From contig JAYWIR010000001.1 in the NCBI GenBank assembly GCA_036172245.1, forward strand, positions 6,448,001 through 6,512,000: a stretch of DNA of 64,000 bases, in the 5' to 3' direction. This stretch comes from Raillietiella orientalis (taxonomy: Eukaryota). Shown here piece after piece: positions 4,465-62,785 of the stretch. The position numbers and the translations under genes were made by a program. The number at the start of each line of letters is the position of its first letter. The stretch's first letter is position 1. The notes beneath the pieces were generated by a model. That model was not told the DNA's origin, searched no databases, and saw nothing but the letters and a program-made list of their open reading frames with translations.

Positions 4465-5583
4465 ATGACGAAAGTTATCGAAGAACCGCAGCACGGTGAA
4501 AGCTCCAAAGGTTTAATTGTTTTTTTCATTACGTAGCTACATTGGAATGAGTTTCAAAAGGATTATGAAATTTAATCGGGGGAATATTTAATTCACGCTC
4601 ACCGGCGTATGCTTTCTGTTGCAGGGTTTGTGAATCAAGATGAGCTTATTTTGGAACAGCAGCGACAGATTGATAAAGAGGTAACAGTCACCGAGTTTGC
4701 CAGTTGACATGTCATGTTTCCTACATAGGTTGCAACTGCTGTGCCTTTGGTTGGTAAAAAAGAAAGCATCGATTTGTTGGTTAATGAATACAAGAATGAT
4801 GCAATATACACCAAAAAAGCTGAAGATCTGAAAAAGCGTTATAATTTCATGAGGAGAATGAGACCAGATGGCAACTGTTTCTTCCGTGCTTTCATCTTCT
4901 CATATTTGGAATATTTGATAGCAGACAAAAATGAGCTAGAACGGTACATATTCCCTTTAGAAAATCATCAATGAAACCTATTGGTAGGCTTCAAGGTTTC
5001 GTAGTTTCATTCTTACGAGCAGAGATAAGTTGATTGCCAGTGGCGTATCGGAATTTACATTGGAGGACTTTTATAACAAGGTAATAATAACCTATCAGAG
5101 CAAGTGGATGTCTCCAGGTGATGGACATGATTGACTTAGTCAGTCAGCCAATTTATGGTGAGCAGCTAGAAGAAGCGTTCAATATTGATGATGGAACTTC
5201 TGATTATGTGGTTGTTTACATGCGTCTGTTGACATCTTCACAGATTCGAAACAATGCAGATCTCTATCAGAACTTTCTAGAGGGTGGTCAGAATGTAAAT
5301 GAGTTTTGCCAGCAGGTATCAGAAAAGGTACAAAAATAATGGAATTATTTTTGATTTTCAGGAAGTAGAACCAATGTATCGTGAAAGTGACCATGTTCAT
5401 ATCCATGCTCTCAGTACTTCCATGGGGGTTGGAGTGAGAGTGATGTACATGGATCGTACAGATATGAGCACCATCAACATGCACAATTTTCCTGATAATT
5501 GTGATCCTATTATACATCTGTTGTACCGGCCAGGTCACTATGATGTATTGTATTCACTGGATAGTGATAATAACATGAATTAG
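4465..5583 (+). CDS. OTUB1: Otubain-family deubiquitinase (ubiquitin thioesterase OTUB1-like), 273 aa, 6 exons
   Basis: Exons 4465-4510, 4625-4680, 4729-4943, 4996-5080, 5118-5315, 5362-5583, all GT-AG and in frame. Contains the N-terminal 'QDELILEQQRQIDKE', the catalytic Cys motif 'RRMRPDGNCFFRAF', 'EVEPMYRESDHVHIHAL' and the His motif 'LLYRPGHYD'. Confidence 0.96.
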
Positions 5584-9810: not shown

Positions 9811-11930
9811 TTACTTTAATTTGATTCTTTTACCATCCTGCCGAGGAGGCCGCCCTTTTTTACCTCCACTAGACTGCTTATTGTTGACAAGGGGATGGAT
9901 TTCATCAGCAGGAGCATTTTCTAATGCAATATCAAACACTTTTGTCTTTTTCCTCTTGGGAGAGGTATTTTCTTTCTGCTCCACACTTTCAGAGGGAGCA
10001 TCCATGTTCATTCCCCATGCTTCTTCTGGCTCCTCAATCTCAGGAGCAGTTGGCAGATATAGCAACACATCATCAGTGCAACCTTCTTCATCTGAACTGC
10101 AAAATGCTGCTACAGGCTCAATGGTAGTGACATCAACTTCTAAATCTTCCTCTTTTGGTTCAGGGTGCAATTCAACAGAGCGATCTTCATCTTCTAGATC
10201 AAATTCAGATTCACGTTCTTCATATTCTAGGTTTTCATCTAACTCTTTAAAGTCTGGAGCAAATGCGGACCAATTCTCCACTTGGTTCTGTGACCAGATG
10301 GATACCACCCCACTAGATATGGAAGCTATAATAGGGCGTACTGGATGCCATGCTACATCCAGAAGCAATTCTCCTTTTGTGCCATGTAGTATCTTCACTA
10401 AACTACCACTACTTCTCTCCCAAATGTACAGGGCATGCTGCTTGGCAGATCCAGCACAGATGAATTCTCCATCCCCAGAGAAACAGCATTTTTTCCACAT
10501 AGTTCTGGAAAAAAAAACCTTGTGAGAATTGAGAGATTTTTATTACAGCACCACTTGTTAACAAGATCTTGCAGTTTCTGAACAGGTTCCGGATCTACAT
10601 CCTTTCCTTTTCCTAAAACTTCTTGCAGTTGAAACACACGGATGACCCGATCAGCCGTATTAACCAAGAAACATCTTTTGCAAATATTATCAGAATGTCA
10701 TCCCACTCACTGTCCACGGCGGGCAAATTCTATGCTTTTGATAGCTGTTGCACTGCTTGTTCCTTGACTAACCCTAAAGTTACAGACGAGCTGCAAACTT
10801 GGGCACCGCAGAACTGTCACTCTTCCCTTCGAATTTCCAGTAAAAATGTACTGACCCCGGTGATCAAATGAAGCAACAATGTTGAGATCAGACTACTGAT
10901 GCTTACAAAGATAGTTTCATTAATAACTGAATACCTCATCATCAACTGGGACCAGCTGATGACCACCTTCTATATGCACTAGTACAGCAGGATGATGCAT
11001 TGGACAAACCAAAATCATGGATGCAACACGGGGATTGAATTGGGCCTTGGAATCAATGATACAACCCTATGCATTCAGGAATATACCTTTAAGATGGGAG
11101 AAGGAAACCGATAGTGAACTTCACATTCGCCACTGATCACTTCCCATATGGACACTGTATTGTCTGTACATGCACTGAGAAGCTGGTAACCATTTCGGGA
11201 CCAGCTAGGAAAACCGTTGCCATGCTTTGCACCAACTGGCAGCTACTGACCTCAAAGAGCAGACTGGATGCACATGTGCACTAATGATTTTTGCAATTCC
11301 TCTGGTCAAAAAGTCCCAAATGACAATGCGACCATCGTTGCAGCCAACTGCTAATAAAGTACCGCGACGATTAAACGTGCATGTTACAGCAACAGAAACA
11401 CAATCTAAAGCTCCATCGAATTCCTGTAAACACAACACGATGAACACGGGGTCACACAGTTGGAAGTCTTTACCTCTGGGTAATTTTGACCAAAAGACTC
11501 TAAAACGAAAGCATTATCAAACCCAATTCCGAAACGGTCATTCGCTGCGATCAACAGAAAGATGACAGAGCAAGGGTATTCTCTTTACATCACTTTTCCC
11601 CCGAAGAAGAGAAACCCAAGAGACGCGAAACTGCCGTTCTGCCGATTGCATGCACTTTGAATCGACCCACTTTGCGTCCGCCATTCGCGAGGTGGGCAAT
11701 GCGGTGAGTGCGTGCAAAGCCGAGGCATTTCCATTCGCATCAACCGCAATGAAGGTTTGTTTTGCTTTGCTTTTTTCCTTCTTTTTTCCTTCTCCCCCCC
11801 TTAACCCTCCACCCCACCGCCCCTTGTTTTTAGAAAACGATCGTTCAGGCAGCGAAGCTCGCTCCCTGCACGGGCAGATTTCAGCGAAATGCCACGAGAA
11901 CCCCGACTCACCTAATAATTCCAAATTCAT
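9811..11930 (-). CDS. RBBP5: Retinoblastoma-binding protein 5 (COMPASS/MLL WD40 subunit), 480 aa, 8 exons
   Basis: Exons 11930-11912, 11499-11474, 11423-11251, 11204-11087, 11045-10935, 10892-10711, 10674-10555, 10504-9811, in frame. Hallmarks: 'MNLELLESFGQNYPEEFDG', 'LLAVGCNDGRIVIWDFLTRGIAKIISAHVHPVCSLSWSR', 'WHPVRPIIAS', 'ENWSAFAPDFKELDENLEYEERESEFD'. Confidence 0.97.
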
Positions 11931-14900
11931 GATGCTTTTCGACAGGATGCTGCTGCACGCGCGCTTCCCGACACTGCGTCTGCAGCCTTCTCCGCAACGC
12001 CCGCCGCTGCTTCTTCACGTGTCCATCAGGGCTGTGCGGCAAGCCGGTCGCCGTTTCCTTTTGCCAGCTGCCAAGTCCAGCGTTTCGACACGCATGCGGG
12101 TGCTCCCTTCCCGACTCGGTGCCGCCGAGCAGGACGCCGAAAACTGGGATCGGGGAACGCGGAAATGGCCCCGCGCAAACCCGACTCACCCGCAAAGACC
12201 GACCACCCGGCGAACGCACAAACCGCGGTGGCCACCCGCGCTTCTCCTGCGGCCGCCGCAGCAGCAGCGCACTCGCCTTCCCCCACCCGGCAGCGCCCAC
12301 CGACAGGGAAAACGGGGAAAGGGCATCATCATCCCAGGGATCAGCGAGAGGACGGAACCGATCCGCCAGCAGCCAACGCGCCACCCTCGTTCCGCCACAC
12401 CTCCGTTCCCCCTCCCCGTGCGCGTCCGCTCCCGGAAATTGCTGCGGTGCTTCAACGTCGGCACGACGGCAGACGCGAAAGAATGTCCACAGCCCACCCC
12501 GTGAGCTGCTAGGTACTCAAGCCGCTTGTCGCCCCTCTTCCTGGTGCCTCTTCCGCTTCCCGGCTTCCGTGCGCTAAGAGGCTGTGCTCGTTGCGCTTCT
12601 CCGGCTGGTCGCCTTTTTCTCCGTGCGACGTGTGCTGCATAGGTATCGCACAAAGACGTCATGTGGTGCCTCCTTTCCATCGATTGCTTCTTTGCGATTG
12701 CCAGACTGCCATACTTCCTCATTTATGGGGTGCCGCGCTCCCAGACAGCCAACCTTGCATTGCTTCCCCCCTTTTCCCAGCTGTAGGCCTACACCCTCGT
12801 ATTCTCCTTCTTTGCTTCTTCCGGTTGCGCTGAACACCACTCTTTCACTGTCGCATGGGCAGCAAAAGTCCAGCACTGCAATCCGCTTTCCTTTTTCCCT
12901 TACCAAATGCGGTTTTAGCAGCCAACTCGTTCCGGGAACTCTCTGGCTGCTCGACACAAGGGTCCACTTGGCTTCGTCCACTTTCTGATCGTCTCTTCAA
13001 TCGCGCTGTGGCGTGTCATGCACAGAGGAGCGCGTTTCTTGCATCCGTTCCGTATGTGGGGCAACGTTTCGTCCAGCAAGGAAGACATGCGACACGTTCT
13101 TCCCGTTTCATTCTTGGCTCAGCGCTGATTGGTAGCACGTTGAGTCTCGCTGCGTGGACGAATTTGCAATCCTGGAAGCTCACTCCCAAGTTGGCGTGAA
13201 AGAAGCTTGGGGCGTGGTGCACGTTCACGCACCGCGTGGCTTTTCGTCGACTCGTGTGTTTTTGGATCAGGGATTGCCTGCCATGCGTGTTCCCTCTGCA
13301 GTGCTCTCGCGCCGGAGCCGATCTTCCTCCTCGTGCTGGTGCTGCTGCTGCTGCTGCTGCTGAGGATGACGCCGTCGACCGTTATGTTCGGTTTTCCATC
13401 GTTGAATTGCCAGCGAGCTTTCGCTCTTCCTTTTGACCGAAGGCTCTACGTGCCCTTGCCACATTGTGCGCTTTCCCCGGAAGAAATCCCCGTCATGAAT
13501 TCCCCGAGATCTTCGTCTGTCGGGGCCTCGGCCGCGGATCCTCTTTCCGACTACTTCGCTTAGTGTTTGTTTGCTGCATTGCCCGGCGAGATGAGTAACT
13601 CGAAGCAGCTGTCGATGGTAAACACGTCCGACTCATTGGCCAGCTTCCTCAGTCTTTTGTTATTCTTTCTCCGCAGAGGTATTCGTTGTTGCCCAGGGTG
13701 GGAGGTGCAAGGTCTTCTTAACTCTTCGTCTGATTTGCTCATCTCTACAGTCAACTTCGGTGAATTGGCAGCCTCTCTCGTGATGAACTGGGCTGAAGAA
13801 GAAGTGGGTTTTCATAGCGTCATCCATCATCTGCCATCCGGATGGCACTTGCCTTCTGGCCAGTGGACACGACCTTCATACCGGAGTGCTTGCCTAGGTA
13901 CTTGTACGCCTCTGATAAGACGATACTAGGGATTTTCCTTTTTCTCACCTCAGCATGAATTTCTTTCGGTCCTCTTGGGGCTTTCCCGCTGTAACACAAC
14001 GACGCGCACTCCGCCGGATTGACGGCCAAGCCGGCTCGCTCCACGCAGTCTGGAAAGGTCGGTTTTCACTTCTCGAGTGTCCTTTTCGATAGAATGACTT
14101 TGTCGTCGGCGTGTGTCCAGTAAAAGCTATGGGGAGAATTACATGCTCCCTATAGCTTTCCCCCATAGGACGAAGTATGGCTTCAACTGCTATGATGAAG
14201 AAAAGTGAACTTAATGGACAGCCGTGCTTCGCTCCTGGCCGCACGGAGAAGGTTCTTGCGGCCGTCCATTCCTACTGGACGACACGAAAATCCATAACTG
14301 AAAAAAAAAAGTAGTCCGTCTCCAAGCAGTCTTTATTTCGCTCAGCTACTGCAGGGTCGGATGTAAGTGGAACTTCCGGAGTGCATCTCCTGGATGATGT
14401 ACATCAGTTCGTCGCCTGCCCCTGCTTCTTTTAGTGTTTCCAGGATCATCCCATGGTCCAGACAGTGCCGAAGGAGTTCTCGAAGAAGTTCTATGAGTAC
14501 TTCTCAGGAATCCTTCGACCAGCAGAGTCCAATCTTGTTTGGAGGACCCAGTTGTTCTGACGGGAAGCCCTTCCGTCGAGTGCCGATTCCCCGAACTGCT
14601 GCTGCGCAGCGCGCACGAAAGCCCCGGAGCTTCTGCAGCCAGTCCCTTCTGCCTGATCGAACCGACGAGCGAGAACACGCAGCGGAGCGGCAGGGCGCGC
14701 GTTCTTCCTTGCGCGAAAGCACAGCGAGATCGCTCCCCGTCCAAGGCGAGTGCCTATTCGCCTTCTTCCCGACGCAAATTGCGCGCGCATTCCCGGTCCA
14801 GCTGCTACGGTGCCGTCGCTTGCGTCCTCCAGCGTGGCGAAGAGGTCCAAGCCTACCCCTGAACCTTACCGCTCGGCGGCAGGAGGGGGTTGCTGCACAT

Positions 14901-16529
14901 CAGCGGAAACTTCGCCCTCCTTCCTCAGCCATCCATCGGAAGCGGCGATGCTCGGGATGGGGTGGTCCTGCGTGACCCGGCGGTCACCTCTTGCAGCAGC
15001 GCTGTCTGCCCCGAGCGAGCGCGCTAATCACGACAGGTGCCCACCGGCGAGGCGCAGCAGAGATCAAACAGGCAAACCCCTGAGCTCTGGGGCTGGGCAA
15101 CGAACGAACTGGCGCACGCTGCCACTCCTCGCTCCATGGGGAAGCGACTCCTTCGCCGGCCTCCAAACGGTTCCGAGTCACCCTCGAGGACCCCGTGGCG
15201 CGCCCCTCGCGTTCGAACGCTCCCCTGTTCCCTGCGACGTGCGAGCGGGAGGCGCCTCTGTTTCTCCGCTGGAGATTCCAGCGCCATCGGCGCCTCCTCC
15301 AAAGCCAGTGGACGGCACCAGTCCGAAAGCGGGTACGGCGGTTCTTCGCGCCCGGAGCACTCACGACCGGCGCACTGATCGCAACCGCGCCACCGACGCG
15401 ATCCGTTGCGTGGACAAGACGCAGGTGCGTAGCGAAGGTAAGGAAGTCGCAGGGATGGCACGGCTGCCAGGCGGCCTCACCAGGAAGACGAAGCGAAGGC
15501 GGAGATCGCTGGCGTCCGTTCCGAAGTGAACGAGCGCGGCTGGCACCGGTGACGCCCGGTCCCTTTATTTATTTGTTGCCCCCTTCCTTCCGTCCCCCAT
15601 TATTTTCCCATGTCCCGAGCTGCGTGTCGGTGCGCCGACTTCCTTCGCCTTCGGTTGGGTACTTCGCCTCCCGACAGGTTCGTTTCCCCTCCAGTGAGCG
15701 AACTCCCCGCAGGGTTTGACCGCTTGAAAGACACCTGCACGGCGGCCTGCCTCTTACGACCGGATGGTCTTCTCGGCGTCGCCGCCGTCCACGCTCAACT
15801 CCCCGGCCGAGCGCGGTGCTTCGCGCGCCAAGAGCGCCGCCGGCCTTTTCCTCTCTTCCTCAGACGCGTCTCCGAAACAAGAAGCTGCCCGGGCATGTGG
15901 ACCGACGCCATGCCTCTCTCGCGGCCGTGGAGGGCCCCGAACAGCCACTACGACTCTGCAAACTTGCAGCAGATGATTGCTCCGTTCCGTGCTTGCGCTG
16001 TAGTTGGCTTTACGGTGTTTGTTTTCCTCAGCGACGTGCGTGGGAGGTTTCGCGCGCACCCCCGTGCCGCTTGCTTACCATATCCGTCCACCTGGTCTCG
16101 GAGCGAAGGCACGAAGCAAAGATGCCGAAAAAAAACGAGAAGCCTTTCCTTGCTTTTCCGACCGATGAACCAAGTAATCTGGGATGCTGACCTTGACGCC
16201 GCCTTGCTGACGCATGGGCGAGCGCCATCCGTCCGCCGAGGATGCAGTAGGAGTATTTCCTCGCTCTGCTTTCCGAGCGCGCGCCCTGTCGGCTGCAGGA
16301 TGCATCAATGTGCTCATCCCCGTCGCTAGGAAGGTCTTGGTGAATCCGCCGCTTCTTGTCTGCTTCCCAGCCCTGGTGCCTGCTGTGGCCATCACCGATG
16401 TCTTGGACAGGAGGGAGAAGAGCGGGGTGATCCACAGTTCCTGCATTCCTCGTCGCCGCCATAGGACGTGGGATTCCACATCTCGCGCTTGCGGCGTTCG
16501 GACCTTCGTTCGTCATGTGACCAATGGAC
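11087..16529. repeat. Left arm of ~5.4 kb near-identical inverted duplication (partner 23884-29322)
   Basis: The ORF track is mirrored, with identical peptides on opposite strands. Coordinate sums stay at ~40409-40415 (11930/28479, 14367/26046, 16329/24084). Both ends were checked at nucleotide level. Confidence 0.97.
12574..14850 (-). mobile_element. Decayed RLE-type non-LTR retrotransposon (R2-group, NeSL/Utopia-like): RT, CCHC knuckle and restriction-like endonuclease remnants; left copy
   Basis: Mirror image of 25563-27838 with the same motifs. The 5' boundary is approximate. Confidence 0.82.
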
Positions 16530-18141: not shown

Positions 18142-18957
18142 TCAGTTGTTTTTCTCAATTCCAATCGAATCCCCAAGACGAGTGATGAAACTCAAGAGAT
18201 ACATTTGAACACGAATATCTGTTGGATTGTTGGTCACAAAAAATCCTGGTACTCCAGCTTTTTCCAGAGTAACCTGTTGGTCACTGACCTATGCACAACT
18301 CATGTAGCTAACAAACAAAATCTGCATCCTATGCAAACCTTCTGATCAATTTGTAATATCAGTTTCATGTCAAAACGCGTCAATTCTTCTTTAAAATGAG
18401 ATTCAAGCCGTGTTATTTGTGATCGATGCTCTAGAGCAAGTGCTAAAAGTTGTTCCTCCTGATTTTCCTGGGCTGCCAAGGCCACTCTGTATTGTTGCAT
18501 CAGTTTTTCTTTCTCTCCTAATGCAAACAAAATATGTCTAGACAGCCCCAGCACCCACCTCTTTGTTGACATAACAACTGTTGCCGTTGTTGATACAAAT
18601 GTTTTTCAGTAACCTGCTGAATTTCCTCGAGACCATGAACAATCTCAAATACAGTGCCATCCAATAGAGAACTGGCCAATCCTGATAAAGTCTCATAAGG
18701 GATGCGTTGCTGGTACTTGCTGCTTGCTTGCTCACACTTTACTTTTGACACATCTTACTCACAGAGGCAGCTCATGGGCCATTAATTGCAACCTGTCCAT
18801 GTACATGTAAAGCCGCTCTTGACGAGGGTCCACATCCATCAGGGCAATTGCTACAATAAGCTGTTGTATTTCAAGAAACAGATTAATGATTACATCCTGT
18901 GATAGACAATCCAATTTCCCCCCTTCCCCCATCCTCCATGCTGAATTTCACTGTCAT
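18142..18957 (-). CDS. DGCR6: DGCR6 / gonadal (gdl) family protein, 206-212 aa, 5 exons
   Basis: Exons 18957 (or 18939)-18894, 18850-18763, 18719-18559, 18517-18339, 18288-18142, in frame. Motifs 'QERLY', '[45 protein letters not shown]', '[38 protein letters not shown]'. The true start is ambiguous: in-frame ATGs at 18957, 18939 and 18839. Confidence 0.93.
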
Positions 18958-19752
18958 GGCCAAGTTATTTTCTGTCTTACAGACTTTGTTTTCTCTTCCT
19001 GAAACACATGAGCTATGATGCTCCTAATCTACTACTACTTACATTTAACTCATTTTCCAACTTGTTTCTCTTCACTTCTATTGGCTTAATTACTTCATTG
19101 CTGTATCTCTTCAAAATGACTTTTGTAGAGGAATTTGTCAAAGTACCACCATTTGCACAAGTACCAGATGGGGCTGCATTAGGTTTTGATGGAAGTAATA
19201 CTTGTGATTTGAATAATGCTTTCTCCTCAGAATCTTCCTTGTTCAATGGTTCTTCATCAATGCACCTAATGTTCAAAGAATGGAAAGTATGAAAGTATAC
19301 TTTCTTTCATAGTTCTTTTTAATATGTTAATTACATTTCTAGCATAAAACGAAAAAAATTACGAGGAAATTCAAGGGAAAAAAAGAATATTACCTATATG
19401 TTAAACTGCTGCTATGGAATCCTAACACATTCAATTTCCTTTTATGCAAACGCTGTGGTAGTGGAAGTACATATTTCTTATATAAATCAAGTAAAGCACG
19501 ATGACTCAAACGATCCAAATTGATGCCCTTAAAGTAGCGCTAAAAAATTTCAGAAACGTGGCATGTTACATTTCATACATATTTTCACATCATGAAATTT
19601 TTCAGAATAGTTTCCATCAAAAATTGTGGATATTTAACATCGGTAAGGCCAGCATAAATACTATATCATACCTTTTTCAAAATTGCCAATAATAATTTCT
19701 CTGGAAAACATTCAGGATGAGTGAGGTCAACATCTGCAACATTTAGCTCCAT
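18954..19752 (-). CDS. Ashwin (C2orf49-like; tRNA-ligase complex subunit family), 164 aa, 4 exons
   Basis: Exons 19752-19672, 19539-19394, 19265-19043, 18998-18954 give MELNVADVDLTHPECFPEKLLLAILKKRYF...LLDLYKKYVLPLPQRLHKRK...[10 protein letters not shown]. This matches the ashwin signatures L-x-HPE, 'L.DLY....PLPQR' and the C-terminal 'TWP'. The ORF track shows only one exon of it. Confidence 0.87.
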
Positions 19753-22700
19753 TGAAAAAAACCTTTACAGATAATACTGTGACTGATTCATTTACTCAAC
19801 AAAAAACTGCTATTTATAGGATGTCAGCAGTCTAAGTACCAACTGGGTCAAGCACATTGTTAGTTTATACTTGATATGTAATACTGTACATAAAATGTGG
19901 GAAGGTTTTCAGTGGGTGCAGATGTAGTTCCACATAATCTCCACTTCCAATTTTCCAACAACTTTTTTTCTATTTCAATGGATCCTGATAGATGCAATTC
20001 ATGGGTACCTTTCTACCTCCGTTTATCACTAGATTAATAAAAATGATTTGAAATCAGATTTCATGAGAATTAATTTCCATATGAAGCTACATTACGCATT
20101 CACGTTTTCTATCAATGCACACTGCATCCTACTTAAAGAGATTGCTCAATAATGTGCCACTAAACCATATTTTCGATTGATCAAACAAGCATCATGAATT
20201 GTACATAATTATATTGCAAAATTCGAACACAGTTACTCGAAAATGTCATTAAGTCTGCAAAAGGGATCGCCTCAAACCTCCCCCATTCTATCGAGAGCTG
20301 CACGCTCATCGCTTCCAAACAACGATGCAGCTCAGCCTCATTAACTGCATGCCGAGAATAATCGAAATATACATTAAGGGGGGGGAGGGGAACTTTTATT
20401 GTCTTATTTGTTACCAGTCAATGATTGTAAGGGTGTACCTATCAATAATCAACGACCAGAGGCATGACGTGATGCCAAGAACATCCTGAAGCACTCCGCC
20501 TCGTGAGGTGTTGCACCTCCGCAGGAACCACTTGGGCCGGGACGTGGTCTTCTGGGTTTCCCGATGCAGCAGCCCAGGCTCCTTTCAGTCAGTATCCCTG
20601 ATTGACCTGGATGGACCTTTCGAACAAGGAGACCTTAGGGAAGGGACCCTCTGCCCTCCAAATACTTGCTATTCCATGCGATGACTCCCCTCCCCCCCCC
20701 CATTTCATTCAAACGAGATCTTCCGTGGGGACCGGGAACTGGGGAGCTCGGGTGCGTTCGCGTTAGCAAATGTCACAGCCATGAAGATTCGTGGCCACTG
20801 AAAGCAGTGACGGCTCCATCGAAGATCATTTGAACCGAAGCTCACAACCCAGAAGGAACAGCTTCGAGCAGGATTCATGGCAATTTCGTCACCGATAACT
20901 GATACTGATCTTTGCCCACCACAATATAACACAGTTCTTAGGCTGCTTCTCATTTTCAAGTAGAGTGAAGTAGCGAGGGAAAAACAACAACAACAACAAC
21001 CAAAAAAAAAAAAAAAACAATAATAAAACAAGCAACAATAATAAAACGAGCCAGTTTTCTCTTCCTCGTTTTGCAAAAGCAGATAAAGCGGCATGTTGGC
21101 AGAGAGAAATAGTGAGCAGTTTTGAGAACATAAAGAAAATGAATTTTCAAGAAAATCAATCTTTTTTTGGCAAAAAAAGAATAAGCACGCGGTTTTTACT
21201 TCAACAGAAATAGGCGTACGAGAGAGGGAAACACTCCGTGAAGTTATCGAGTCTTTTCAAAATGCTTGGCTGACGTCGCATCACTTCGAGTCGGTTCTAG
21301 AATTGCCTCTTCCACGAGGCACTGTCTGTGTACGGTCTTCGTACGGACCGGAAATCCCTGCCGTGGACATTGGTCAAGAACCCTTGAAATTTCCCAGAGC
21401 CTGCGCGAGGGCACACTTTGGGTACTTCTCCTAAAATCCCAGTGCTCAGGTCTAAAAAAGATCTACAAGATTTTTCTTGGAATCAAACAGATCTGATTAT
21501 GTTTTCCAAAAACACTTGAATGGAAGAGGATTTCTTTCTGGCTGTTCCTGCACTTTCTATTTTTCTATTTCCATTATTCTAAGTTGTTGTGGTGTATTTA
21601 TAAATAAGAAATTTTCATGTTGAAGACTTTCTACATTTGTTTGCTCCAAATCCTTCATGAGTGCCCACTTAGTCGATTCAACTCACGTATTCTTCAAGAA
21701 ATCAGTAGTTCGTAAGCTTGACTTTTCACACATTTCGTGGCTGTAGTAATCATCATATATACGACTATGCCATAAATTTTCAAGCTTATTTGCAACTGAA
21801 CAGCCCATGTCGAGCATCCGACAGTACCACGGAGGCTGACCAGCATAACTGTGCAATGTAAAAATTACTTCTCCATGTTACTTATGTTGTTCTTTGAAGG
21901 TATTCGTATTCCACAATATTATCAATTGCCGAAACTGCCATGTTTTAAAACTTTGTTACTTGTAAAGTCTTCATAACTCTTGGGAACTGAGAAATTGGAG
22001 ACACGTGGTTCGAAGTGCACAGTGGATGCACGGTGATGAAAGTTGGCATTCCAGGTGTGAAGAAATTCCAACATACTAGAGGGAATGTTTCGTTTCTCAA
22101 ATTGCACCAAAGTTCGGTACTGAAACGCAAATCGAGTAAGTTGGAACTAACTAGGCACTCGTGGAGATCGTTAGCCATAAATTTAAATCCAGTTGCATCA
22201 CGGATGCCAAAAAAAAAAAATTGTTCCAAAGGTCAAACTTCCAATGACATTCAAGGGCGGATTTGAGTAACGGAAGAGAAAACTCCATCTTGGAATACAC
22301 TTCAGTTTTCAGCCAAAAAAAAAAAAAAGTAGATTTTCCTCTGTGGACAACATCAAGGACAACCAAGAACCAGCTGCAACCAATAATGTATACGTACTCT
22401 CAGCTTCCCATCAAAAATTTCTTACACTAAAAGCTACCGAAATTCTCAGAACTCTCACTATACTAAAACCTGGATATCTACTGAAAACAGAAATTCGCCT
22501 CCAATATTGATGGTGGACGGACTCACGTGTGACCACGGAAAGTTCCGGGCAAGGAACGACAGACAACCCGGGGTCATTAAAATGAAGCACGCATATACGA
22601 TAAAGACTCATCTCTCATTCCGTAGATTTTGCGCTTTCTCCTGACGCAAAACGGCCAGAGTCCATTCCAGAATTTCACAGCTCCCAGAGCACTGCCACAG

Positions 22701-24489
22701 CACGCAGTGGGCGAAACACCAATAGAAAGAAACCTAAGCCTTCTCAAACACCAGCAATGTTGAGGACGTCCTACCATGAAGACCAGCAAGTTACTGAAGC
22801 ACCCTGCTCTCTGTGCCACCCAAGACGAGTAGAGCCCGTTGCACTCATCTTCATCCTCAAGAAGACAGGCCATAGATGTCCCAGGTGATCATCGTCTGCG
22901 GCTGAGGCATCCAGCCGGTGAGGGACGGATCGGTCTCCTCGTTAGCTGCGAGTCTGTGGCTGCCGGCGGCTGCCGCTCCGCACAACCATCGACCCGGGGA
23001 GCCCCGCTTTTCCGGGACTGATCTCCGACGGAACCGGCAGCGCGCCGGACCCTGCGTATAGCATCCGGGAACACGGATCTTGCGAACGGAGACGGTCCTT
23101 TCCCGAAAGGCCGCGGAGCGCGCACGTGCCGTGGTGCGGAAGGGCGGGGAACTCGCCGCAGCGGCATGCGAGCTGCGCTCCCGCCTGCCTCCTTCTCCCT
23201 GCGTCCACCCTCAGCCTAGCGCGCTTGCGCCAACCACAGCGGATGCCCGCGCTACGCGGATTCCCAGAGCGCGGCGAAAGCGTGGCTGCAGTCCCGGTCC
23301 ACTAGCGCGGTGTGGATCAACCGCGCTGCTGATTCGCGGCTTCGCTTTGCGGGAGCGGCGTTCCGATCCGGCCGTCCCGGAAACGCGGAACCAGAGATGC
23401 GTACACGTGGCCAGCGCGAATCGGAATCCCTTCTGCCTCCTTTGCCGTCTCCGTGCCAGGAAACGCCGAGTCCCGGTGGCGGTGCGGAAAGCAGGAGTCC
23501 ACCAGAGCTGACGCGAGGGAGAGAACCGCGACCCGCGAACGGGCGAGCCTACGACAAAGAGTTCTGTTGCAAGGAAGAGGGAGCGGAAAGCCCAAAATTC
23601 CTGCTGTTCGAGTAAGGATACCCGCGGCCCTCCTTCCACCTCCCTAGCCTAAAACACCTGCGAGAGATCCCCAGCCCCGCTGCTGTTTCCGTGAAGGAAA
23701 TGGCTCGGGAAGATCCTCCCTGGGACATTGACCACGAGAGAATTCTGGATTCCCTGCAATCGAGCCGATCCTCCTCGGTTCGAGGGACCTCGTGGATTCC
23801 CAGTGCTGGGAGGCAGCAATGACTCGCTTCTTCCTTACGCTGGACCGTATCGAAAGCACACTGACAGTAACTCACTCGTCCGTGTCCATTGGTCACATGA
23901 CGAACGAAGGTCCGAACGCCGCAAGCGCGAGATGTGGAATCCCACGTCCTATGGCGGCGACGAGGAATGCAGGAACTGTGGATCACCCCGCTCTTCTCCC
24001 TCCTGTCCAAGACATCGGTGATGGCCACAGCAGGCACCAGGGCTGGGAAGCAGACAAGAAGCGGCGGATTCACCAAGACCTTCCTAGCGACGGGGATGAG
24101 CACATTGATGCATCCTGCAGCCGACAGGGCGCGCGCTCGGAAAGCAGAGCGAGGAAATACTCCTACTGCATCCTCGGCGGACGGATGGCGCTCGCCCATG
24201 CGTCAGCAAGGCGGCGTCAAGGTCAGCATCCCAGATTACTTGGTTCATCGGTCGGAAAAGCAAGGAAAGGCTTCTCGTTTTTTTTCGGCATCTTTGCTTC
24301 GTGCCTTCGCTCCGAGACCAGGTGGACGGATATGGTAAGCAAGCGGCACGGGGGTGCGCGCGAAACCTCCCACGCACGTCGCTGAGGAAAACAAACACCG
24401 TAAAGCCAACTACAGCGCAAGCACGGAACGGAGCAATCATCTGCTGCAAGTTTGCAGAGTCGTAGTGGCTGTTCGGGGCCCTCCACGGC

Positions 24490-24630
24490 CGCGAGAGAGG
24501 CATGGCGTCGGTCCACATGCCCGGGCAGCTTCTTGTTTCGGAGACGCGTCTGAGGAAGAGAGGAAAAGGCCGGCGGCGCTCTTGGCGCGCGAAGCACCGC
24601 GCTCGGCCGGGGAGTTGAGCGTGGACGGCG
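24490..24630 (+). repeat. Dispersed repeat segment related to 41270-41395 (mirrored at ~15783-15923)
   Basis: ggcatggcgtcggtccacatgcccgggcagcttcttgtttcggagacgcgtc...gagcgtggacggcgg aligns by eye with ggcatggcgccggtccacgtcccccgggcagctctcgttggctcggagacgcgtc...gagcgtggacggcgg. Confidence 0.75.
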
Positions 24631-25562
24631 GCGACGCCGAGAAGACCATCCGGTCGTAAGAGGCAGGCCGCCGTGCAGGTGTCTTTCAAGCGGTCAAACC
24701 CTGCGGGGAGTTCGCTCAATGGAGGGGAAACGAACCTGTCGGGAGGCGAAGTACCCAACCGAAGGCGAAGGAAGTCGGCGCACCGACACGCAGCTCGGGA
24801 CATGGGAAAATAATGGGGGACGGAAGGAAGGGGGCAACAAATAAATAAAGGGACCGGGCGTCACCGGTGCCAGCCGCGCTCGTTCACTTCGGAACGGACG
24901 CCAGCGATCTCCGCCTTCGCTTCGTCTTCCTGGTGAGGCCGCCTGGCAGCCGTGCCATCCCTGCGACTTCCTTACCTTCGCTACGCACCTGCGTCTTGTC
25001 CACGCAACGGATCGCGTCGGTGGCGCGGTTGCGATCAGTGCGCCGGTCGTGAGTGCTCCGGGCGCGAAGAACCGCCGTACCCGCTTTCGGACTGGTGCCG
25101 TCCACTGGCTTTGGAGGAGGCGCCGATGGCGCTGGAATCTCCAGCGGAGAAACAGAGGCGCCTCCCGCTCGCACGTCGCAGGGAACAGGGGAGCGTTCGA
25201 ACGCGAGGGGCGCGCCACGGGGTCCTCGAGGGTGACTCGGAACCGTTTGGAGGCCGGCGAAGGAGTCGCTTCCCCATGGAGCGAGGAGTGGCAGCGTGCG
25301 CCAGTTCGTTCGTTGCCCAGCCCCAGAGCTCAGGGGTTTGCCTGTTTGATCTCTGCTGCGCCTCGCCGGTGGGCACCTGTCGTGATTAGCGCGCTCGCTC
25401 GGGGCAGACAGCGCTGCTGCAAGAGGTGACCGCCGGGTCACGCAGGACCACCCCATCCCGAGCATCGCCGCTTCCGATGGATGGCTGAGGAAGGAGGGCG
25501 AAGTTTCCGCTGATGTGCAGCAACCCCCTCCTGCCGCCGAGCGGTAAGGTTCAGGGGTAGGC

Positions 25563-27838
25563 TTGGACCTCTTCGCCACGCTGGAGGACGCAAGCGACGG
25601 CACCGTAGCAGCTGGACCGGGAATGCGCGCGCAATTTGCGTCGGGAAGAAGGCGAATAGGCACTCGCCTTGGACGGGGAGCGATCTCGCTGTGCTTTCGC
25701 GCAAGGAAGAACGCGCGCCCTGCCGCTCCGCTGCGTGTTCTCGCTCGTCGGTTCGATCAGGCAGAAGGGACTGGCTGCAGAAGCTCCGGGGCTTTCGTGC
25801 GCGCTGCGCAGCAGCAGTTCGGGGAATCGGCACTCGACGGAAGGGCTTCCCGTCAGAACAACTGGGTCCTCCAAACAAGATTGGACTCTGCTGGTCGAAG
25901 GATTCCTGAGAAGTACTCATAGAACTTCTTCGAGAACTCCTTCGGCACTGTCTGGACCATGGGATGATCCTGGAAACACTAAAAGAAGCAGGGGCAGGCG
26001 ACGAACTGATGTACATCATCCAGGAGATGCACTCCGGAAGTTCCACTTACATCCGACCCTGCAGTAGCTGAGCGAAATAAAGACTGCTTGGAGACGGACT
26101 ACTTTTTTTTTTTTCAGTTATGGATTTTCGTGTCGTCCAGTAGGAATGGACGGCCGCAAGAACCTTCTCCGTGCGGCCAGGAGCGAAGCACGGCTGTCCA
26201 TTAAGTTCACTTTTCTTCATCATAGCAGTTGAAGCCATACTTCGTCCTATGGGGGAAAGCTATAGGGAGCATGTAATTCTCCCCATAGCTTTTACTGGAC
26301 ACACGCCGACGACAAAGTCATTCTATCGAAAAGGACACTCGAGAAGTGAAAACCGACCTTTCCAGACTGCGTGGAGCGAGCCGGCTTGGCCGTCAATCCG
26401 GCGGAGTGCGCGTCGTTGTGTTACAGCGGGAAAGCCCCAAGAGGACCGAAAGAAATTCATGCTGAGGTGAGAAAAAGGAAAATCCCTAGTATCGTCTTAT
26501 CAGAGGCGTACAAGTACCTAGGCAAGCACTCCGGTATGAAGGTCGTGTCCACTGGCCAGAAGGCAAGTGCCATCCGGATGGCAGATGATGGATGACGCTA
26601 TGAAAACCCACTTCTTCTTCAGCCCAGTTCATCACGAGAGAGGCTGCCAATTCACCGAAGTTGACTGTAGAGATGAGCAAATCAGACGAAGAGTTAAGAA
26701 GACCTTGCACCTCCCACCCTGGGCAACAACGAATACCTCTGCGGAGAAAGAATAACAAAAGACTGAGGAAGCTGGCCAATGAGTCGGACGTGTTTACCAT
26801 CGACAGCTGCTTCGAGTTACTCATCTCGCCGGGCAATGCAGCAAACAAACACTAAGCGAAGTAGTCGGAAAGAGGATCCGCGGCCGAGGCCCCGACAGAC
26901 GAAGATCTCGGGGAATTCATGACGGGGATTTCTTCCGGGGAAAGCGCACAATGTGGCAAGGGCACGTAGAGCCTTCGGTCAAAAGGAAGAGCGAAAGCTC
27001 GCTGGCAATTCAACGATGGAAAACCGAACATAACGGTCGACGGCGTCATCCTCAGCAGCAGCAGCAGCAGCAGCACCAGCACGAGGAGGAAGATCGGCTC
27101 CGGCGCAGGAAGCACTGCAGAGGGAACACGCATGGCGGGCAATCCCTGATCCAAAAACACACAGTGTTAAAGCCACGCGGTGCGTGAACGTGCACCACGC
27201 CCCAAGCTTCTTTCACGCCAACTTGGGAGTGAGCTTCCAGGATTGCAAATTCGTCCACGCAGCGAGACTCAACGTGCTACCAATCAGCGCTGAGCCAAGA
27301 ATGAAACGGGAAGAACGTGTCGCATGTCTTCCTTGCTGGACGAAACGTTGCCCCACATACGGAACGGATGCAAGAAACGCGCTCCTCTGTGCATGACACG
27401 CCACAGCGCGATTGAAGAGACGATCAGAAAGTGGACGAAGCCAAGTGGACCCTTGTGTCGAGCAGCCAGAGAGTTCCCGGAACGAGTTGGCTGCTAAAAC
27501 CGCATTTGGTAAGGGAAAAAGGAAAGCGGATTGCAGTGCTGGACTTTTGCTGCCCATGCGACAGTGAAAGAGTGGTGTTCAGCGCAACCGGAAGAAGCAA
27601 AGAAGGAGAATACGAGGGTGTAGGCCTACAGCTGGGAAAAGGGGGGAAGCAATGCAAGGTTGGCTGTCTGGGAGCGCGGCACCCCATAAATGAGGAAGTA
27701 TGGCAGTCTGGCAATCGCAAAGAAGCAATCGATGGAAAGGAGGCACCACATGACGTCTTTGTGCGATACCTATGCAGCACACGTCGCACGGAGAAAAAGG
27801 CGACCAGCCGGAGAAGCGCAACGAGCACAGCCTCTTAG
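25563..27838 (+). mobile_element. Decayed RLE-type non-LTR retrotransposon (R2-group, NeSL/Utopia-like); right copy
   Basis: Motifs occur in the canonical order across frameshifts. RT: 'LDHGMILETLKEAGAGDELMYIIQEMHSGSST', 'GAKHGCPLSSLFFIIAVEAILR', 'GLAVNPAECASL..SGK.PRG', 'YKYLGK'. Thumb: 'DEQIRRRVKKTLHLP', 'ESDVFTIDSCFELLIS'. Then 'FQDCKFVHAARLNVLP', the knuckle 'CLPC..DETLPHIRNGC..TRHSAI', and the RLE 'LKPHLVREKGKRIAVLDFCCP...K.GEY...VGCLGARHPINEE'. Confidence 0.85.
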
Positions 27839-28478
27839 CGCACGGAAGCCGGGAAGCGGAAGAGGCACCAGGAAGAGGGGCGACAAGCGGCTTGAGTACC
27901 TAGCAGCTCACGGGGTGGGCTGTGGACATTCTTTCGCGTCTGCCGTCGTGCCGACGTTGAAGCACCACCTTCATTCCGGGAGCGGACGCGCACGGGAGGG
28001 GGAACGGAGGTGTGGCGGAACGAGGTGGCGCGTTGGCTGCTGGCGGATCGGTTCCGTCCTCTCGCTGATCCCTGGGATGATGATGCCCTTTCCCCGTTTT
28101 CCCTGTCGGTGGGCGCTGCCGGGTGGGGGAAGGCGAGTGCGCTGCTGCTGCGGCGGCCGCAGGAGAAGCGCGGGTGGCCACCGCGGTTTGTGCGTTCGCC
28201 GGGTGGTCGGTCTTTGCGGGTGAGTCGGGTTTGCGCGGGGCCATTTCCGCGTTCCCCGATCCCAGTTTTCGGCGTCCTGCTCGGCGGCACCGAGTCGGGA
28301 AGGGAGCACCCGCATGCGTGTCGAAACGCTGGACTTGGCAGCTGGCAAAAGGAAACGGCGACCGGCTTGCCGCACAGCCCTGATGGACACGTGAAGAAGC
28401 AGCGGCGGGCGTTGCGGAGAAGGCTGCAGACGCAGTGTCGGGAAGCGCGCGTGCAGCAGCATCCTGTCGAAAAGCATC

Positions 28479-29322
28479 ATGAATTTGGAATTATTAGGTG
28501 AGTCGGGGTTCTCGTGGCATTTCGCTGAAATCTGCCCGTGCAGGGAGCGAGCTTCGCTGCCTGAACGATCGTTTTCTAAAAACAAGGGGCGGTGGGGTGG
28601 AGGGTTAAGGGGGGGAGAAGGAAAAAAGAAGGAAAAAAGCAAAGCAAAACAAACCTTCATTGCGGTTGATGCGAATGGAAATGCCTCGGCTTTGCACGCA
28701 CTCACCGCATTGCCCACCTCGCGAATGGCGGACGCAAAGTGGGTCGATTCAAAGTGCATGCAATCGGCAGAACGGCAGTTTCGCGTCTCTTGGGTTTCTC
28801 TTCTTCGGGGGAAAAGTGATGTAAAGAGAATACCCTTGCTCTGTCATCTTTCTGTTGATCGCAGCGAATGACTGTTTCGGAATTGGGTTTGATAATGCTT
28901 TCGTTTTAGAGTCTTTTGGTCAAAATTACCCAGAGGTAAAGACTTCCAACTGTGTGACCCCGTGTTCATCGTGTTGTGTTTACAGGAATTCGATGGAGCT
29001 TTAGATTGTGTTTCTGTTGCTGTAACATGCACGTTTAATCGTCGCGGTACTTTATTAGCAGTTGGCTGCAACGATGGTCGCATTGTCATTTGGGACTTTT
29101 TGACCAGAGGAATTGCAAAAATCATTAGTGCACATGTGCATCCAGTCTGCTCTTTGAGGTCAGTAGCTGCCAGTTGGTGCAAAGCATGGCAACGGTTTTC
29201 CTAGCTGGTCCCGAAATGGTTACCAGCTTCTCAGTGCATGTACAGACAATACAGTGTCCATATGGGAAGTGATCAGTGGCGAATGTGAAGTTCACTATCG
29301 GTTTCCTTCTCCCATTTTAAGG
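28479..29322 (+). pseudogene. RBBP5: Truncated duplicate of RBBP5 (exons 1-4 with introns)
   Basis: Nearly identical to 11930-11087 in inverted orientation. Homology stops at the exon-4 donor (CCCATTTTAAGGTTAC versus CCCATCTTAAAG|GTAT). Exons 5-8 are absent. Confidence 0.92.
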
Positions 29323-32300
29323 TTACACACGGGATTGGCGAAGTTTTCTGACTCGTGCCGCCCGAATCGTGACGGAGGTAGGAGGGGAAGAGGCACGGGA
29401 AAGTGCAGGGGGCTGCCGTCTTCCTCACTTCGTCGAGCTCTTCCATGGAGTTCTCGCGCTGGTCGCTAGGTGGATCCCGATCCTAGGCTCATTGAGGACC
29501 TGTTACGTCCCCGGATGCGCGTGTGCTGCAGTACCCTTAGGAGGGTCCCTCATCCAGCGGAACTCTCCTGCTCATCCTCATCTCGTCATGGTGACGTCCT
29601 GTGTCGTCTGCTAGGACCGCGGCTCGGTTCTCATGGAAAGGGAGGAATGCAGTGAGGAGTCGGCGCAGGTTTTTGGAAGAGAGAAGGAGGACGGATTATG
29701 GGAGGTCTTAGGTGAGGGGGAGGAGAAGAAAGAGAGGAACTGGTCCTTCTTAGTCTTTCCTTCTGCCTTCCTGCTCTTTCTTTCCTCCCCTTTTTGGGCT
29801 CTCCCTCGCCCCTTCTCCCCTCCTCCTCTTCTTTTCCTCCCTATCTTCCCTTCTGCCCCCCTTTCTGCTGCTCCCTTCCTTCTTCTCGGAGGTCGCACTG
29901 CGCGATGGAAAGAGGTGGCCCTTTTCCTGCTTAGCTGTCCTCCGTTTCCTCTGGGAAGCTCCCAAGGCCAAGGAGTGATCAAGGAGGTGCTGTAAGAGTC
30001 CGGGTCGCGAGCAGGAAGATTCCTTCCGGAATGCCTCTGGAGCAGGAGACGAACCATGCAGGACTGCGACCTCGGGCCTGCTAACAGGAACGAGACGTAC
30101 CTTGGTGCTCGCTTCTGGGGTGGGGTGGAGTGGTCTCCTACCTGCCTTAGGGAGAGCCCACGTGCTTGCGGTTGGGAGCAACTTGTGGTTCAGGAACGGA
30201 AGAACCCTTCGGGAGCTCAGGGGACGAAGGAAGTCCCGAGGACGAGTAGTGGAGCAGAGGAGGTGGGAGGTCGGTGGTCTTTCTCCTAATGGAAGGAGTC
30301 ATCGTGGCTCCTCGGCTTGCGGCGTCATATTGTCAATGCCCCGCGGTTTTTGGTGCGCGCGCTCAACTTCTCTTTTTGTAGGACACATTCCGGGGGACGT
30401 CTTTCCCCCTCTGCCGCGGGAGAGAAGGCACCGGAGGGAGTGACTTCCCCCATAGGGTTTTCAAGGGGTTGCTGCTGTTTAATGGGGTGTTAGAATCAGG
30501 GTGGATACGGGGGTGGGAGTGGGAGGGTGGATCGGCCGATGAGCGCCAAGCCAGAACCGGTGTGGCCCCTCGCGACTTCTTGCAGCGCCGGTTGCGGGAG
30601 CGGCGCCCTCCTTCGAGGGAGTCTCCAGCAGAGGATGCGCCGCGATGGAACGCGGGCGCTTGGACCTCAGGGATGTCACGATGCGCAGCTGCGTTTCAGG
30701 GGCCGCGGGCGTAAGAGGGTCTCGCATCCCACGAAGGACCTAGATGGGAGTTGTGCTTCCGCTAGTGAACCACGGAGCGGGGCGCGGCATGTCTGGAGGG
30801 TTCGTTCCTCAGTCGAGCGGATCCGGGAGGGCGGTAGGGAGGTCGAGTTTCTTCCCCTCTAGCGCGCGGGTCGTCCGAGGAGACCGACCTGCCGCCGGGA
30901 AGCGCGACAGCGAAGCCTCCGCTCCAATCAGCAGGATCCACTCCCTGCAGTTCGCAGTTTAGGCCGCGGGCAGGAGGAGGACCAATGGAAAGCAGCGTGG
31001 TCCGGTCGGGGAGGGTCATCAGCGCTTTCCGGAGACCCAAGAGAGCTGCGGTCCTCCCGCTCGCAGCCTCCTCGGGCAGCGGGGAGGGGTGGCATCTGCG
31101 CGGACACGGGAAGGTCCGGCTCGCGGAGCAGCCCGGGAAGGCGGCCGCAGCAGCAGGCCGGGAAAGCCCGTCGCTCAGGGAAGAGGCACATTTTGGGCAC
31201 GGAGGTGGGCCTTCGCCCCTGGTGTCGTCAGGCGGAGGATGAGTTGTGCTGACTCAGGACGCGAGATGGCAGAAGCAGCCTCTTCGCGCGAATTGCCCAG
31301 ATGCACCGCCCCCTCGACAGTCCCGCCCGGTCGGCGAGAACCAAGCCGGGTCCTCCAGCAGCTTCGAATTTTCTCCCCGCGTCCAGTCCGATGAATTCCA
31401 GATCTCCCCTCCCCAGTGCAGTCCTCGTTCTCAGGGGCGGCGCGCTTCGCCCGTCCCCCGATCTTCAGTGCTGCCATCTCGTAGAAGGGAACACTATTAG
31501 GCGGGAGCTCGTCGTAGGGTTCGCTGCAACCGGTCCGACGCGCGCTCGAATGGCGGACCGTCGGCCAACCGCTTCGACGGAAGCCCGGAGGGTCCGCCGA
31601 AAAATGGGGATGCGAGAGACAGCTCCTGCATTCCTGCACGGACCGGCAGGCAATGCCCCTCCGCGCCGCCGTGGTTCCGCTCTCGTGGGTCCACTGGCAG
31701 GGAAGGCAGACCATGCTACCTCGTCAAGGTCGCCAAGGGCTGGGAGCTGCGGAGTGCTGCCTGCCAGCAGCAGGACGGGTTTCTTGGTGACCTCCCCTTG
31801 CCTGTTGGGGAGGCCTGGAAGGGCACGAAGGGCTGCTACCTGGGGATCCGGCGAGATGCTACAGGGCCGCGTGACCCGAGTCCAGCGGAGAGGCGAGTCC
31901 GAAGGGCTGGGCTCGCGGAAGATCTTCCTGCCCAAGACGCTGCGACGTCCACCACTTTCTGCCCGGACCGGCGAAGGGCGCCGCCGGTCTCGAGTGGCGG
32001 GGCAGCCACGCACGAGGGCCTCGCAACGCCTCTGAGCGCGCGGCGGCAGCGGCGACCCTCTTGCAAGCTGGAGGTGCCCGGCCGCAGTGAACCTCCGGCC
32101 AGCAGCCCTGTCAGAGCTCCCAGCGTGGGGAGGCGACCTGATGACCCCTGGCATCCAGGCCGGATCGCGCGGCTGGCTGCGGGCTTTCGGAAGGAGCTGC
32201 AATCCCACAGAGGGGTGCTCGTGCGCAACCACGGTCTGGGTGGCCGCGCCGACGCGGGGTCGCGCTGGCCGGCACGCAGCAGCGTGTCGAGGGGAAAGCC

Positions 32301-56712: not shown

Positions 56713-56763
<51 letters not shown>

Positions 56764-62700: not shown

Positions 62701-62785
62701 CAGGTCACGGAGGTTGGCGATCTCGCCGTTGATCAGGTCGCGGCGCAGCTTGCTAGCTCCCTTGGTGGACTTCTGGGAGTCGTAG
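46130..62785 (-). CDS. dysf: bHLH-PAS transcription factor dysfusion / NPAS4 orthologue, at least 807 aa, 5' exon not located
   Basis: Exons 62785-62604 (bHLH 'KSTKGASKLRRDLINGEIANLRDLLPLPATTRQRLSQLQLMALVCVYIRKANYF'), 60643-60588 ('GFSK'), 59708-59619 (PAS-A 'ALTGFLVMMTQSGKLLYISDNAAEYLGHSM'), 52571-52392, 51261-51077, 50296-50190 (PAS-B 'SWYHLLHW'), 48873-48720 (PAC 'WIHCVLQVK..IICTNQVL'), 47600-46130. All phases are compatible. Confidence 0.95.
51505..51840. repeat. Purine-rich (GA/GGA) low-complexity tract in a dysf intron
   Basis: Long stretch almost entirely of G and A on the + strand (gaggaagaggtgaaggaagggaagaagaaaagagggagg...). Confidence 0.8.
56715..56759. repeat. 45-nt poly(T) homopolymer
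   Basis: Directly visible. Confidence 0.95.
57114..57195. repeat. (GC)n-rich alternating purine-pyrimidine tract containing the palindrome gctcgtacgagc
   Basis: ...cacgtgcgtgctcgtacgagcgtgcgcgcgcgcgcgcgcgcacgcgcgtgtgt; a further (GC)n run lies at ~57252-57267. Confidence 0.85.

Follow-up and report, generated by a model that had tools for sequence, protein, structure and literature searches.

Two genes on the minus strand of the DNA analysed here (a stretch of 64,000 nt from Raillietiella orientalis, called the window below and used for all position numbers) follow each other so closely that it must be asked whether they are transcribed separately or give rise to a single dicistronic mRNA. 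The downstream gene belongs to DGCR6, a poorly understood gene family of the 22q11 deletion, and the upstream gene probably encodes Ashwin, which in vertebrates (C2orf49) is a subunit of the RtcB tRNA ligase complex. Both are conserved animal proteins whose functions are poorly defined, and information on Ashwin is described as scarce (PMC10630183). The pair had been proposed as dicistronic in an earlier interpretation made from the letters of the DNA, referred to here as the sequence-only reading. We read the strand and spliced both genes by script, and the coordinates given for their boundaries (18142, 19752, 18998-18954 and 18894) proved to be exact. The features of the locus are listed in Table 1.

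Table 1. Features of the Ashwin-like gene and DGCR6 in the order of transcription; positions are those of the window, and L002, L004 and L005 are metagenomic loci with a DGCR6 relative.
Feature	Position (strand)	Characteristics
TATA box TATAAATA	19811..19818 (-)	Upstream of the Ashwin-like gene; regex scan
Initiator-like TCAGTC	19781..19786 (-)	Inr regex; putative function
Ashwin-like exon 1	19672..19752 (-)	ATG 19752, 27 codons; without a Pfam match on its own
Ashwin-like exon 2	19394..19539 (-)	Carries the conserved N-terminal Ashwin stretch; Pfam PF15323 match
Ashwin-like exon 3	19043..19265 (-)	Basic, low-complexity middle part; without a Pfam match
Ashwin-like exon 4	18954..18998 (-)	Final 14 codons and TGA; 5' portion of the exon common to DGCR6
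DGCR6 candidate first coding segment	18894..18939 (-)	ATG 18939, A at -3, G at +4
DGCR6 candidate intron	18851..18893 (-)	43 nt, GT..AG; 28% GC, flanks 50-51% GC
DGCR6 exon 1 core	18763..18850 (-)	Weak, positionally consistent tblastn matches to L002, L004 and L005
DGCR6 exon 2	18559..18719 (-)	PF07324, 69.1 bits, E 5.5e-19, profile positions 36-89 of 194
DGCR6 exon 3	18339..18517 (-)	PF07324, weak, 14 bits, E 0.044, profile positions 93-147
DGCR6 exon 4	18142..18288 (-)	PF07324, 57.2 bits, E 2.4e-15, profile positions 148-186
ATTAAA	17953..17958 (-)	Nearest canonical poly(A) signal downstream of the pair, 184 nt from the DGCR6 stop codon
AATAAA	17812..17817 (-)	325 nt past the DGCR6 stop

The Pfam scan of the pair was performed on seven single-exon translations, and Ashwin was thus scored exon by exon. 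The downstream gene ends at 18142 with the stop codon TGA (18144-18142). Its exons 2 and 4 both exceeded the curated cut-off of PF07324, which is 29.6 bits, and exons 2, 3 and 4 together covered the profile collinearly from position 36 to position 186 of 194. Exon 1 gave no Pfam match; in tblastn its core showed 40-47% identity over 19-20 amino acids to exon 1 of three of five metagenomic relatives (E 0.4-2.4). Given two exons above the Pfam cut-off and the collinear matches, we regard the assignment of this gene to DGCR6, already made in the sequence-only reading, as certain.

The position of the DGCR6 start codon is uncertain because the first coding segment, and with it the N-terminal extension of the protein, is not conserved in the relatives. 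Two models can be drawn. In the first, translation would begin at ATG 18939, and removal of the 43-nt candidate intron would join the DGCR6 frame to give a protein of 206 aa. In the second, translation would begin at ATG 18932, which is in the DGCR6 frame, and a straight read with no intron removed would give 218 aa. A third in-frame ATG lies at 18839. The introns between DGCR6 exons 1 to 4 measure 43, 41 and 50 nt; local intron lengths are 41-50 nt in this pair, and they are 38-47 nt in the Otubain gene of the same window. The splice donor that had been placed after 18894 agrees with these values, as the intron that it opens has GT..AG ends, restores the DGCR6 frame and fits the local range of 38-50 nt. 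Because the candidate intron is poor in GC relative to its flanks (Table 1) and has a length like that of the local introns, we consider the spliced model to be slightly more likely.

The upstream gene consists of four exons (19752-18954, minus strand), and splicing them yielded an intact ORF of 164 aa that ends with TGA at 18956-18954. All three introns, of 132, 128 and 44 nt, have GT..AG ends, and the 44-nt intron before exon 4 has the acceptor TTTCAG. Exon 2 matched only one Pfam family, Ashwin (PF15323), with an E-value of 5.8e-4 and 20.6 bits, under the curated cut-off of 27. In this alignment, residues 10-32 of the exon, or 37-59 of the protein, correspond to profile positions 31-53 of 217, and the match therefore sits at the equivalent place, in the conserved N-terminal region of the Ashwin profile. 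Exons 1 and 3 and the 24-aa ORF that holds exon 4 had no Pfam match at E up to 10. As a control, we scanned 144 of the 182 ORFs of the window, those from its low-GC parts (ORFs within the locus or at the edges of GC-rich repeats were omitted), and among these 144 translations E < 0.001 was reached only by the true Otubain exons. The protein ends in ...ITWP, and vertebrate Ashwin has a conserved C-terminal tryptophan-proline end. In addition, the protein is basic (29 of 164 residues are K or R; pI 9.47), which is a weak and non-specific criterion for the family. Ashwin has been described as a basic protein with nuclear-localisation signals (PMC10630183).

Since Ashwin is the sole family for exon 2, the control ORFs were clean and the protein is basic, the upstream ORF is probably Ashwin. 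The exon 2 match falls at the place expected for the identity proposed in the sequence-only reading, but the score stays below the Pfam cut-off. A search of the PDB gave no matches at E up to 10, and no Ashwin relative was found with exon 2 in the protein libraries searched; one of these, a word-indexed library, apparently lacks animal proteins, and DGCR6 exon 2 was likewise without a match there. The single library match of Ashwin-like exon 2, a 1147-aa repeat protein with Tri-helical/DUF1203 domains (P0001), was dismissed as irrelevant.

These results also bear on another reading, namely that the upstream ORF is a chance or decayed frame and not a functional Ashwin, or that the arrangement is an assembly artefact of a palindromic region, so that only DGCR6 would be real. 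The low Pfam score, the failure of all three further pieces to match at E up to 10 and the lack of an Ashwin relative in the protein libraries are what this reading would predict, and the locus is indeed flanked by perfect 5.4-kb inverted repeats. The arms of these repeats, however, begin 1.6 kb and 4 kb from the pair, and the 164-codon frame is open across four exons with canonical splice sites. The sole match of exon 2 also falls at the right position of the right profile, at a level of significance which the control ORFs attained only for a real gene. We therefore consider this reading to be very improbable.

The stop codon of the Ashwin-like ORF and the DGCR6 ATG 18939 are in the same exon, separated by a spacer of 14 nt (18953-18940, minus strand; CAGTGAAATTCAGC), which becomes 21 nt if ATG 18932 is used and would become 114 nt with the third ATG, at 18839. 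The two ORFs are on the same strand and do not overlap, and with this short spacer they have the layout of a dicistronic locus. It had been stated that the genes abut within one shared exon, leaving no room for a promoter or a poly(A) signal, and both points hold for the 14-nt spacer. A promoter, together with a poly(A) signal and a cleavage site, does not fit into 14-21 nt, so that Ashwin transcripts necessarily extend into DGCR6. For the same reason, transcription of DGCR6 must begin inside the Ashwin-like gene or ahead of it, unless the DGCR6 transcript is cut from a longer precursor. This geometric argument is firm. Genome compaction does not explain the tight spacing, because the other genes recognised in the window by Pfam scans lie at least 12 kb away; these are only Otubain, 12 kb off, and an NPAS4-like gene at a distance of about 29 kb.

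No unusual RNA structure was predicted at the junction, where the minimum free energy was not below that of shuffled sequences (z = +0.74; 151 of 200 shuffles folded as well). An in-frame fusion of Ashwin and DGCR6, either by exon skipping or by use of a cryptic 40-nt GT..AG segment (18980-18941), was considered and rejected, as the frames fail to join the DGCR6 frame.

The spacer ends in TTCAG (18945-18941), which resembles a 3' splice acceptor and stands one base before ATG 18939. Operons that are resolved by a spliced leader occur in nematodes, tunicates, flatworms, rotifers and some crustaceans. If the pair were such an operon, a dicistronic pre-mRNA would be cut, DGCR6 would receive a leader at TTCAG/C before ATG 18939, and Ashwin would be polyadenylated just upstream. 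The acceptor-like AAATTCAG directly before the ATG is similar to the cis acceptors TTTCAG, CATTAG and GCATAG of the locus, introns of 38-50 nt are typical of several trans-splicing lineages, and very short spacers are typical of operons of the tunicate type. On the other hand, neither canonical poly(A) hexamers nor their common variants were found in Ashwin-like exon 4, and the window, which gave no Rfam matches at all, showed no SL RNA gene. Moreover, genes are sparse in the window, whereas genomes rich in operons are compact, and the combination of TATA box and TCAGTC upstream of the pair is of an arthropod-like promoter type. Taken together, this makes a spliced-leader operon unlikely.

We looked for promoter and poly(A) motifs on both sides of the junction. 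The only properly spaced pair of TATA[AT]A and TCAGTC that was found is located upstream of the Ashwin-like gene. Counted from the first T of the TATA box, the A of TCAGTC (19784) follows at 34 nt, a near-canonical spacing, which would place the transcription start site at 19784 and give a 5'UTR of about 32 nt. A regex scan of 19400-18940 found no TATA[AT]A. At the other end, the minus strand has neither AATAAA nor ATTAAA in the interval from 19323 to 17958. The sequence-only reading had pointed out that the junction contains no AATAAA; this is true, but the absence inside DGCR6 is not statistically notable, since canonical hexamers were missing by chance in 31% of 5000 shuffles of the 812-nt DGCR6 span (P(0) = 0.31), and we rejected the lack of a poly(A) signal as strong evidence. 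The neighbouring Otubain gene has an AATAAA about 80 nt after its stop codon.

It is also conceivable that the two genes overlap and are transcribed separately, DGCR6 from a TATA-less start inside the Ashwin-like gene, while Ashwin transcripts would end within DGCR6, where a poly(A) site of non-canonical type would be used. Many animal promoters are TATA-less, and an internal DGCR6 promoter is therefore possible. Intron 1 or 2 of the Ashwin-like gene, both long and AT-rich, could harbour such a start, as could its exons 3 and 4. These two introns are unusually long for the window, with 132 and 128 nt and 24-29% GC, the other eight introns measured there having 38-50 nt. Variant hexamers are available at 18743 (AGTAAA, in DGCR6 intron 1) and at 18870 (AATACA), and the missing canonical signal in DGCR6 is, as described above, not significant. 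There is also a parallel in FlyBase, where an alternative promoter yields monocistronic transcripts of gonadal (gdl) in Drosophila. Against separate transcripts, no TATA was found inside the Ashwin-like gene, where the only Inr-type match (19119) has no TATA upstream; transcripts starting in intron 1 or 2 would carry several ATGs ahead of the DGCR6 ATG; and a poly(A) site within the 43-nt intron would presumably compete with its splicing. We judge this arrangement to be possible, though on the unlikely side.

From the structures of the two genes, the distance between them and the location of promoter and poly(A) motifs, we infer that the Ashwin-like gene and DGCR6 belong to a single transcription unit producing a dicistronic mRNA, a reading to which we give about an even chance of being correct. 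Transcription would start at the TATA/Inr promoter near 19784 and end at the ATTAAA/AATAAA signals (17958/17817), and splicing would leave an mRNA of about 1.5 kb with both cistrons, in whose shared exon the Ashwin stop and the DGCR6 start would be separated by the spacer alone. The Ashwin cistron would be translated by normal scanning. The DGCR6 cistron could be reached by re-initiation or internal entry, or DGCR6 could be made from a further, monocistronic transcript like the one that FlyBase has for gdl. Leaky scanning to DGCR6 seems unlikely, as the Ashwin mRNA model holds 13 ATGs. Re-initiation after an ORF as long as 164 codons is usually inefficient.

The age of the arrangement is a separate matter. 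When metagenomes were scanned with DGCR6 exon 2, five loci (L001-L005) matched at 46-57% identity, and no Ashwin was detected upstream of DGCR6 in any of them, within upstream DNA of only 60-2,340 nt and in relatives that are distant. When the spliced Ashwin-like protein was compared with the five loci by tblastn, the best match had an E-value of 0.084 and was in the wrong place. Similarly, Pfam found no Ashwin match in 83 upstream plus-strand ORFs of these loci (83 of 107 were scanned; those omitted overlap or follow DGCR6 exon 2), and a search of the loci for Ashwin motifs gave one match, which was irrelevant. L002 instead has an NTR2-like ORF of 490 aa (35 bits) in this place, which begins about 95 nt ahead of the DGCR6 start and points away from it. 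Because the upstream DNA is short, the relatives are distant and only one of the four Ashwin exons is detectable even in the window, the absence from the metagenomic loci is weak evidence against conservation.

A collection of genome contigs contained no DGCR6 relative that we could find. The viral contig L006 (68% GC) was rejected as a relative of DGCR6, its 22-residue tblastn match (E 0.006) being due to chance; it contained no Ashwin. In the literature searched, no paper was found that links Ashwin/C2orf49 with DGCR6/gdl. It seems improbable that the dicistronic Ashwin-DGCR6 arrangement is ancient and conserved in arthropods or in a wider group of animals, in which case the small ORF that precedes gdl in Drosophila, gdl-ORF39, would be a decayed N-terminal stump of Ashwin.

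What the locus means depends on which of these readings is correct. If the unit were ancient, the expression of DGCR6 would be coupled to that of a subunit of the RtcB tRNA ligase complex, which would hint at a shared function. Dicistronic partners are sometimes functionally linked, the example in FlyBase being the two Mocs2 subunits (PMC4528330). Should the pair be both a single unit and conserved, a testable lead from DGCR6/gonadal to the tRNA ligase complex would result, and it would become clear how the bicistronic gonadal transcripts long known from Drosophila arose. If the genes just overlap, the pair is close but ordinary. The locus needs manual annotation, since an automatic gene predictor will probably merge the two genes or miss one of them.

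In operons resolved by a spliced leader, genes of the same strand lie from a few to about 100 nt apart, and a 3' splice acceptor stands just before the downstream start. The pair resembles the operons of nematodes, tunicates and others in the acceptor-like site before the DGCR6 ATG; it differs from them in having no poly(A) signal ahead of this acceptor and in its gene-poor surroundings. Compared with vertebrate Ashwin (C2orf49), the predicted upstream protein is alike in being small and basic (PMC10630183) and in the match of the Pfam Ashwin family to exon 2. It differs in that the score is below the Pfam cut-off and in that its 164 aa are fewer than the 217 positions of the profile.

The Drosophila gene gdl, which we take to be a member of the DGCR6 family, is likewise a 3' cistron that is preceded, across a short spacer, by an unrelated ORF on the same strand. 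In FlyBase, as listed in File S1 of Crosby et al. (2015; PMC4528330), gdl-ORF39 (FBgn0028377) is 'di/polycistronic only', encodes 39 aa and lies 67 nt from gdl. The Drosophila precedent invoked in the sequence-only reading is thus confirmed, gdl being the 3' member of a listed dicistronic pair. The upstream ORF, however, has 39 aa there and 164 aa here, and the spacer 67 nt there and 14 nt here. The further suggestion that gdl-ORF39 could be the counterpart of Ashwin is weakened by the same listing (PMC4528330), since a protein of only 39 aa cannot be a full-length Ashwin and would at best be a relic. According to File S1, a monocistronic transcript of gdl exists as well, made from an alternative promoter, and Schulz et al. 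(1990) is cited for the mono- and bicistronic gonadal transcripts, among the nine dicistronic loci that were first described (PMC4528330). With this precedent in the DGCR6 gene family, it is plausible that the Ashwin-DGCR6 pair is dicistronic.

Annotation release 6.04 of Drosophila includes 159 dicistronic pairs (PMC4528330), and in some of these the two ORFs are as close together as in the pair described here: the spacer is 15 nt in CG42507/Trl, 18 nt in CG9960/Snapin and 1 nt in CG34314/Rad1 (PMC4528330). In those pairs, as here, two unrelated protein-coding ORFs are separated by 1-20 nt from stop to start; they are backed by cDNA, RNA-seq and TSS data, whereas the present pair is known from its DNA. 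Given such pairs in FlyBase, a spacer of 14 nt is ordinary for an arthropod dicistron, and the Ashwin-like gene and DGCR6 may plausibly be a further case of the dicistronic gene pairs known from animals.

Within the exon shared by the Ashwin-like gene and DGCR6 there is a cryptic, intron-like segment of 40 nt (GTAAGA...TTCAG), and its splicing out would take away the Ashwin stop codon. A junction of the Ashwin and DGCR6 frames by this route was considered and rejected, as on reading by hand the resulting frame fails to meet that of DGCR6. The segment may be relevant to alternative isoforms.

Two inverted-repeat arms with a GC content of 45–63% flank a unique segment of 7.35 kb, which contains the Ashwin-like/DGCR6 pair. 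The arms align in four blocks of 798–2229 nt, each 100% complementary, and a Pfam scan of their long ORFs detected no domains. The arms could represent either a genuine palindromic duplication or an assembly artefact.

GC content is extremely uneven along the window: it is 33–38% surrounding the three short-intron genes and 54–71% from 22 kb to the window end. Neither tandem repeats with a score of at least 200 nor matches to Rfam families were found in the window. The Otubain gene has introns of 38–47 nt and an AATAAA about 80 nt past its stop codon. In contrast to the low-GC genes, with their introns of 38–50 nt, the NPAS4-like gene, which lies within a 66–70% GC domain, has kilobases between its exons.

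Features of the window and of the metagenomic DGCR6 locus L002
Feature	Sequence	Coordinates	Strand	Basis or remark
Otubain (Peptidase_C65) gene	window	4466-5585	plus	three exon ORFs matched in Pfam, with E from 3e-24 to 2e-15
Inverted-repeat arms	window	11084-16529 and 23884-29325		four complementary blocks; 5.4 kb each
Cryptic 40-nt segment	window	18941-18980	minus	inside shared exon
NPAS4-like bHLH-PAS gene	window	48341-63120	minus	Pfam matches in ORFs
PAS_11	window	ORFs 49993-50511 and 48341-49312	minus	Pfam
bHLH_NPAS4 domain	window	ORF 62239-63120	minus	Pfam, E 2.2e-22
NTR2/GCFC2-like 490-aa ORF	L002	552-2021	minus	match of 35 bits
DGCR6	L002	from about 2116	plus	

In L002, one metagenomic relative, DGCR6 and the NTR2/GCFC2-like ORF are arranged head-to-head about 95 nt apart, which suggests that they have a bidirectional promoter and that the neighbour of DGCR6 there is not an upstream cistron.
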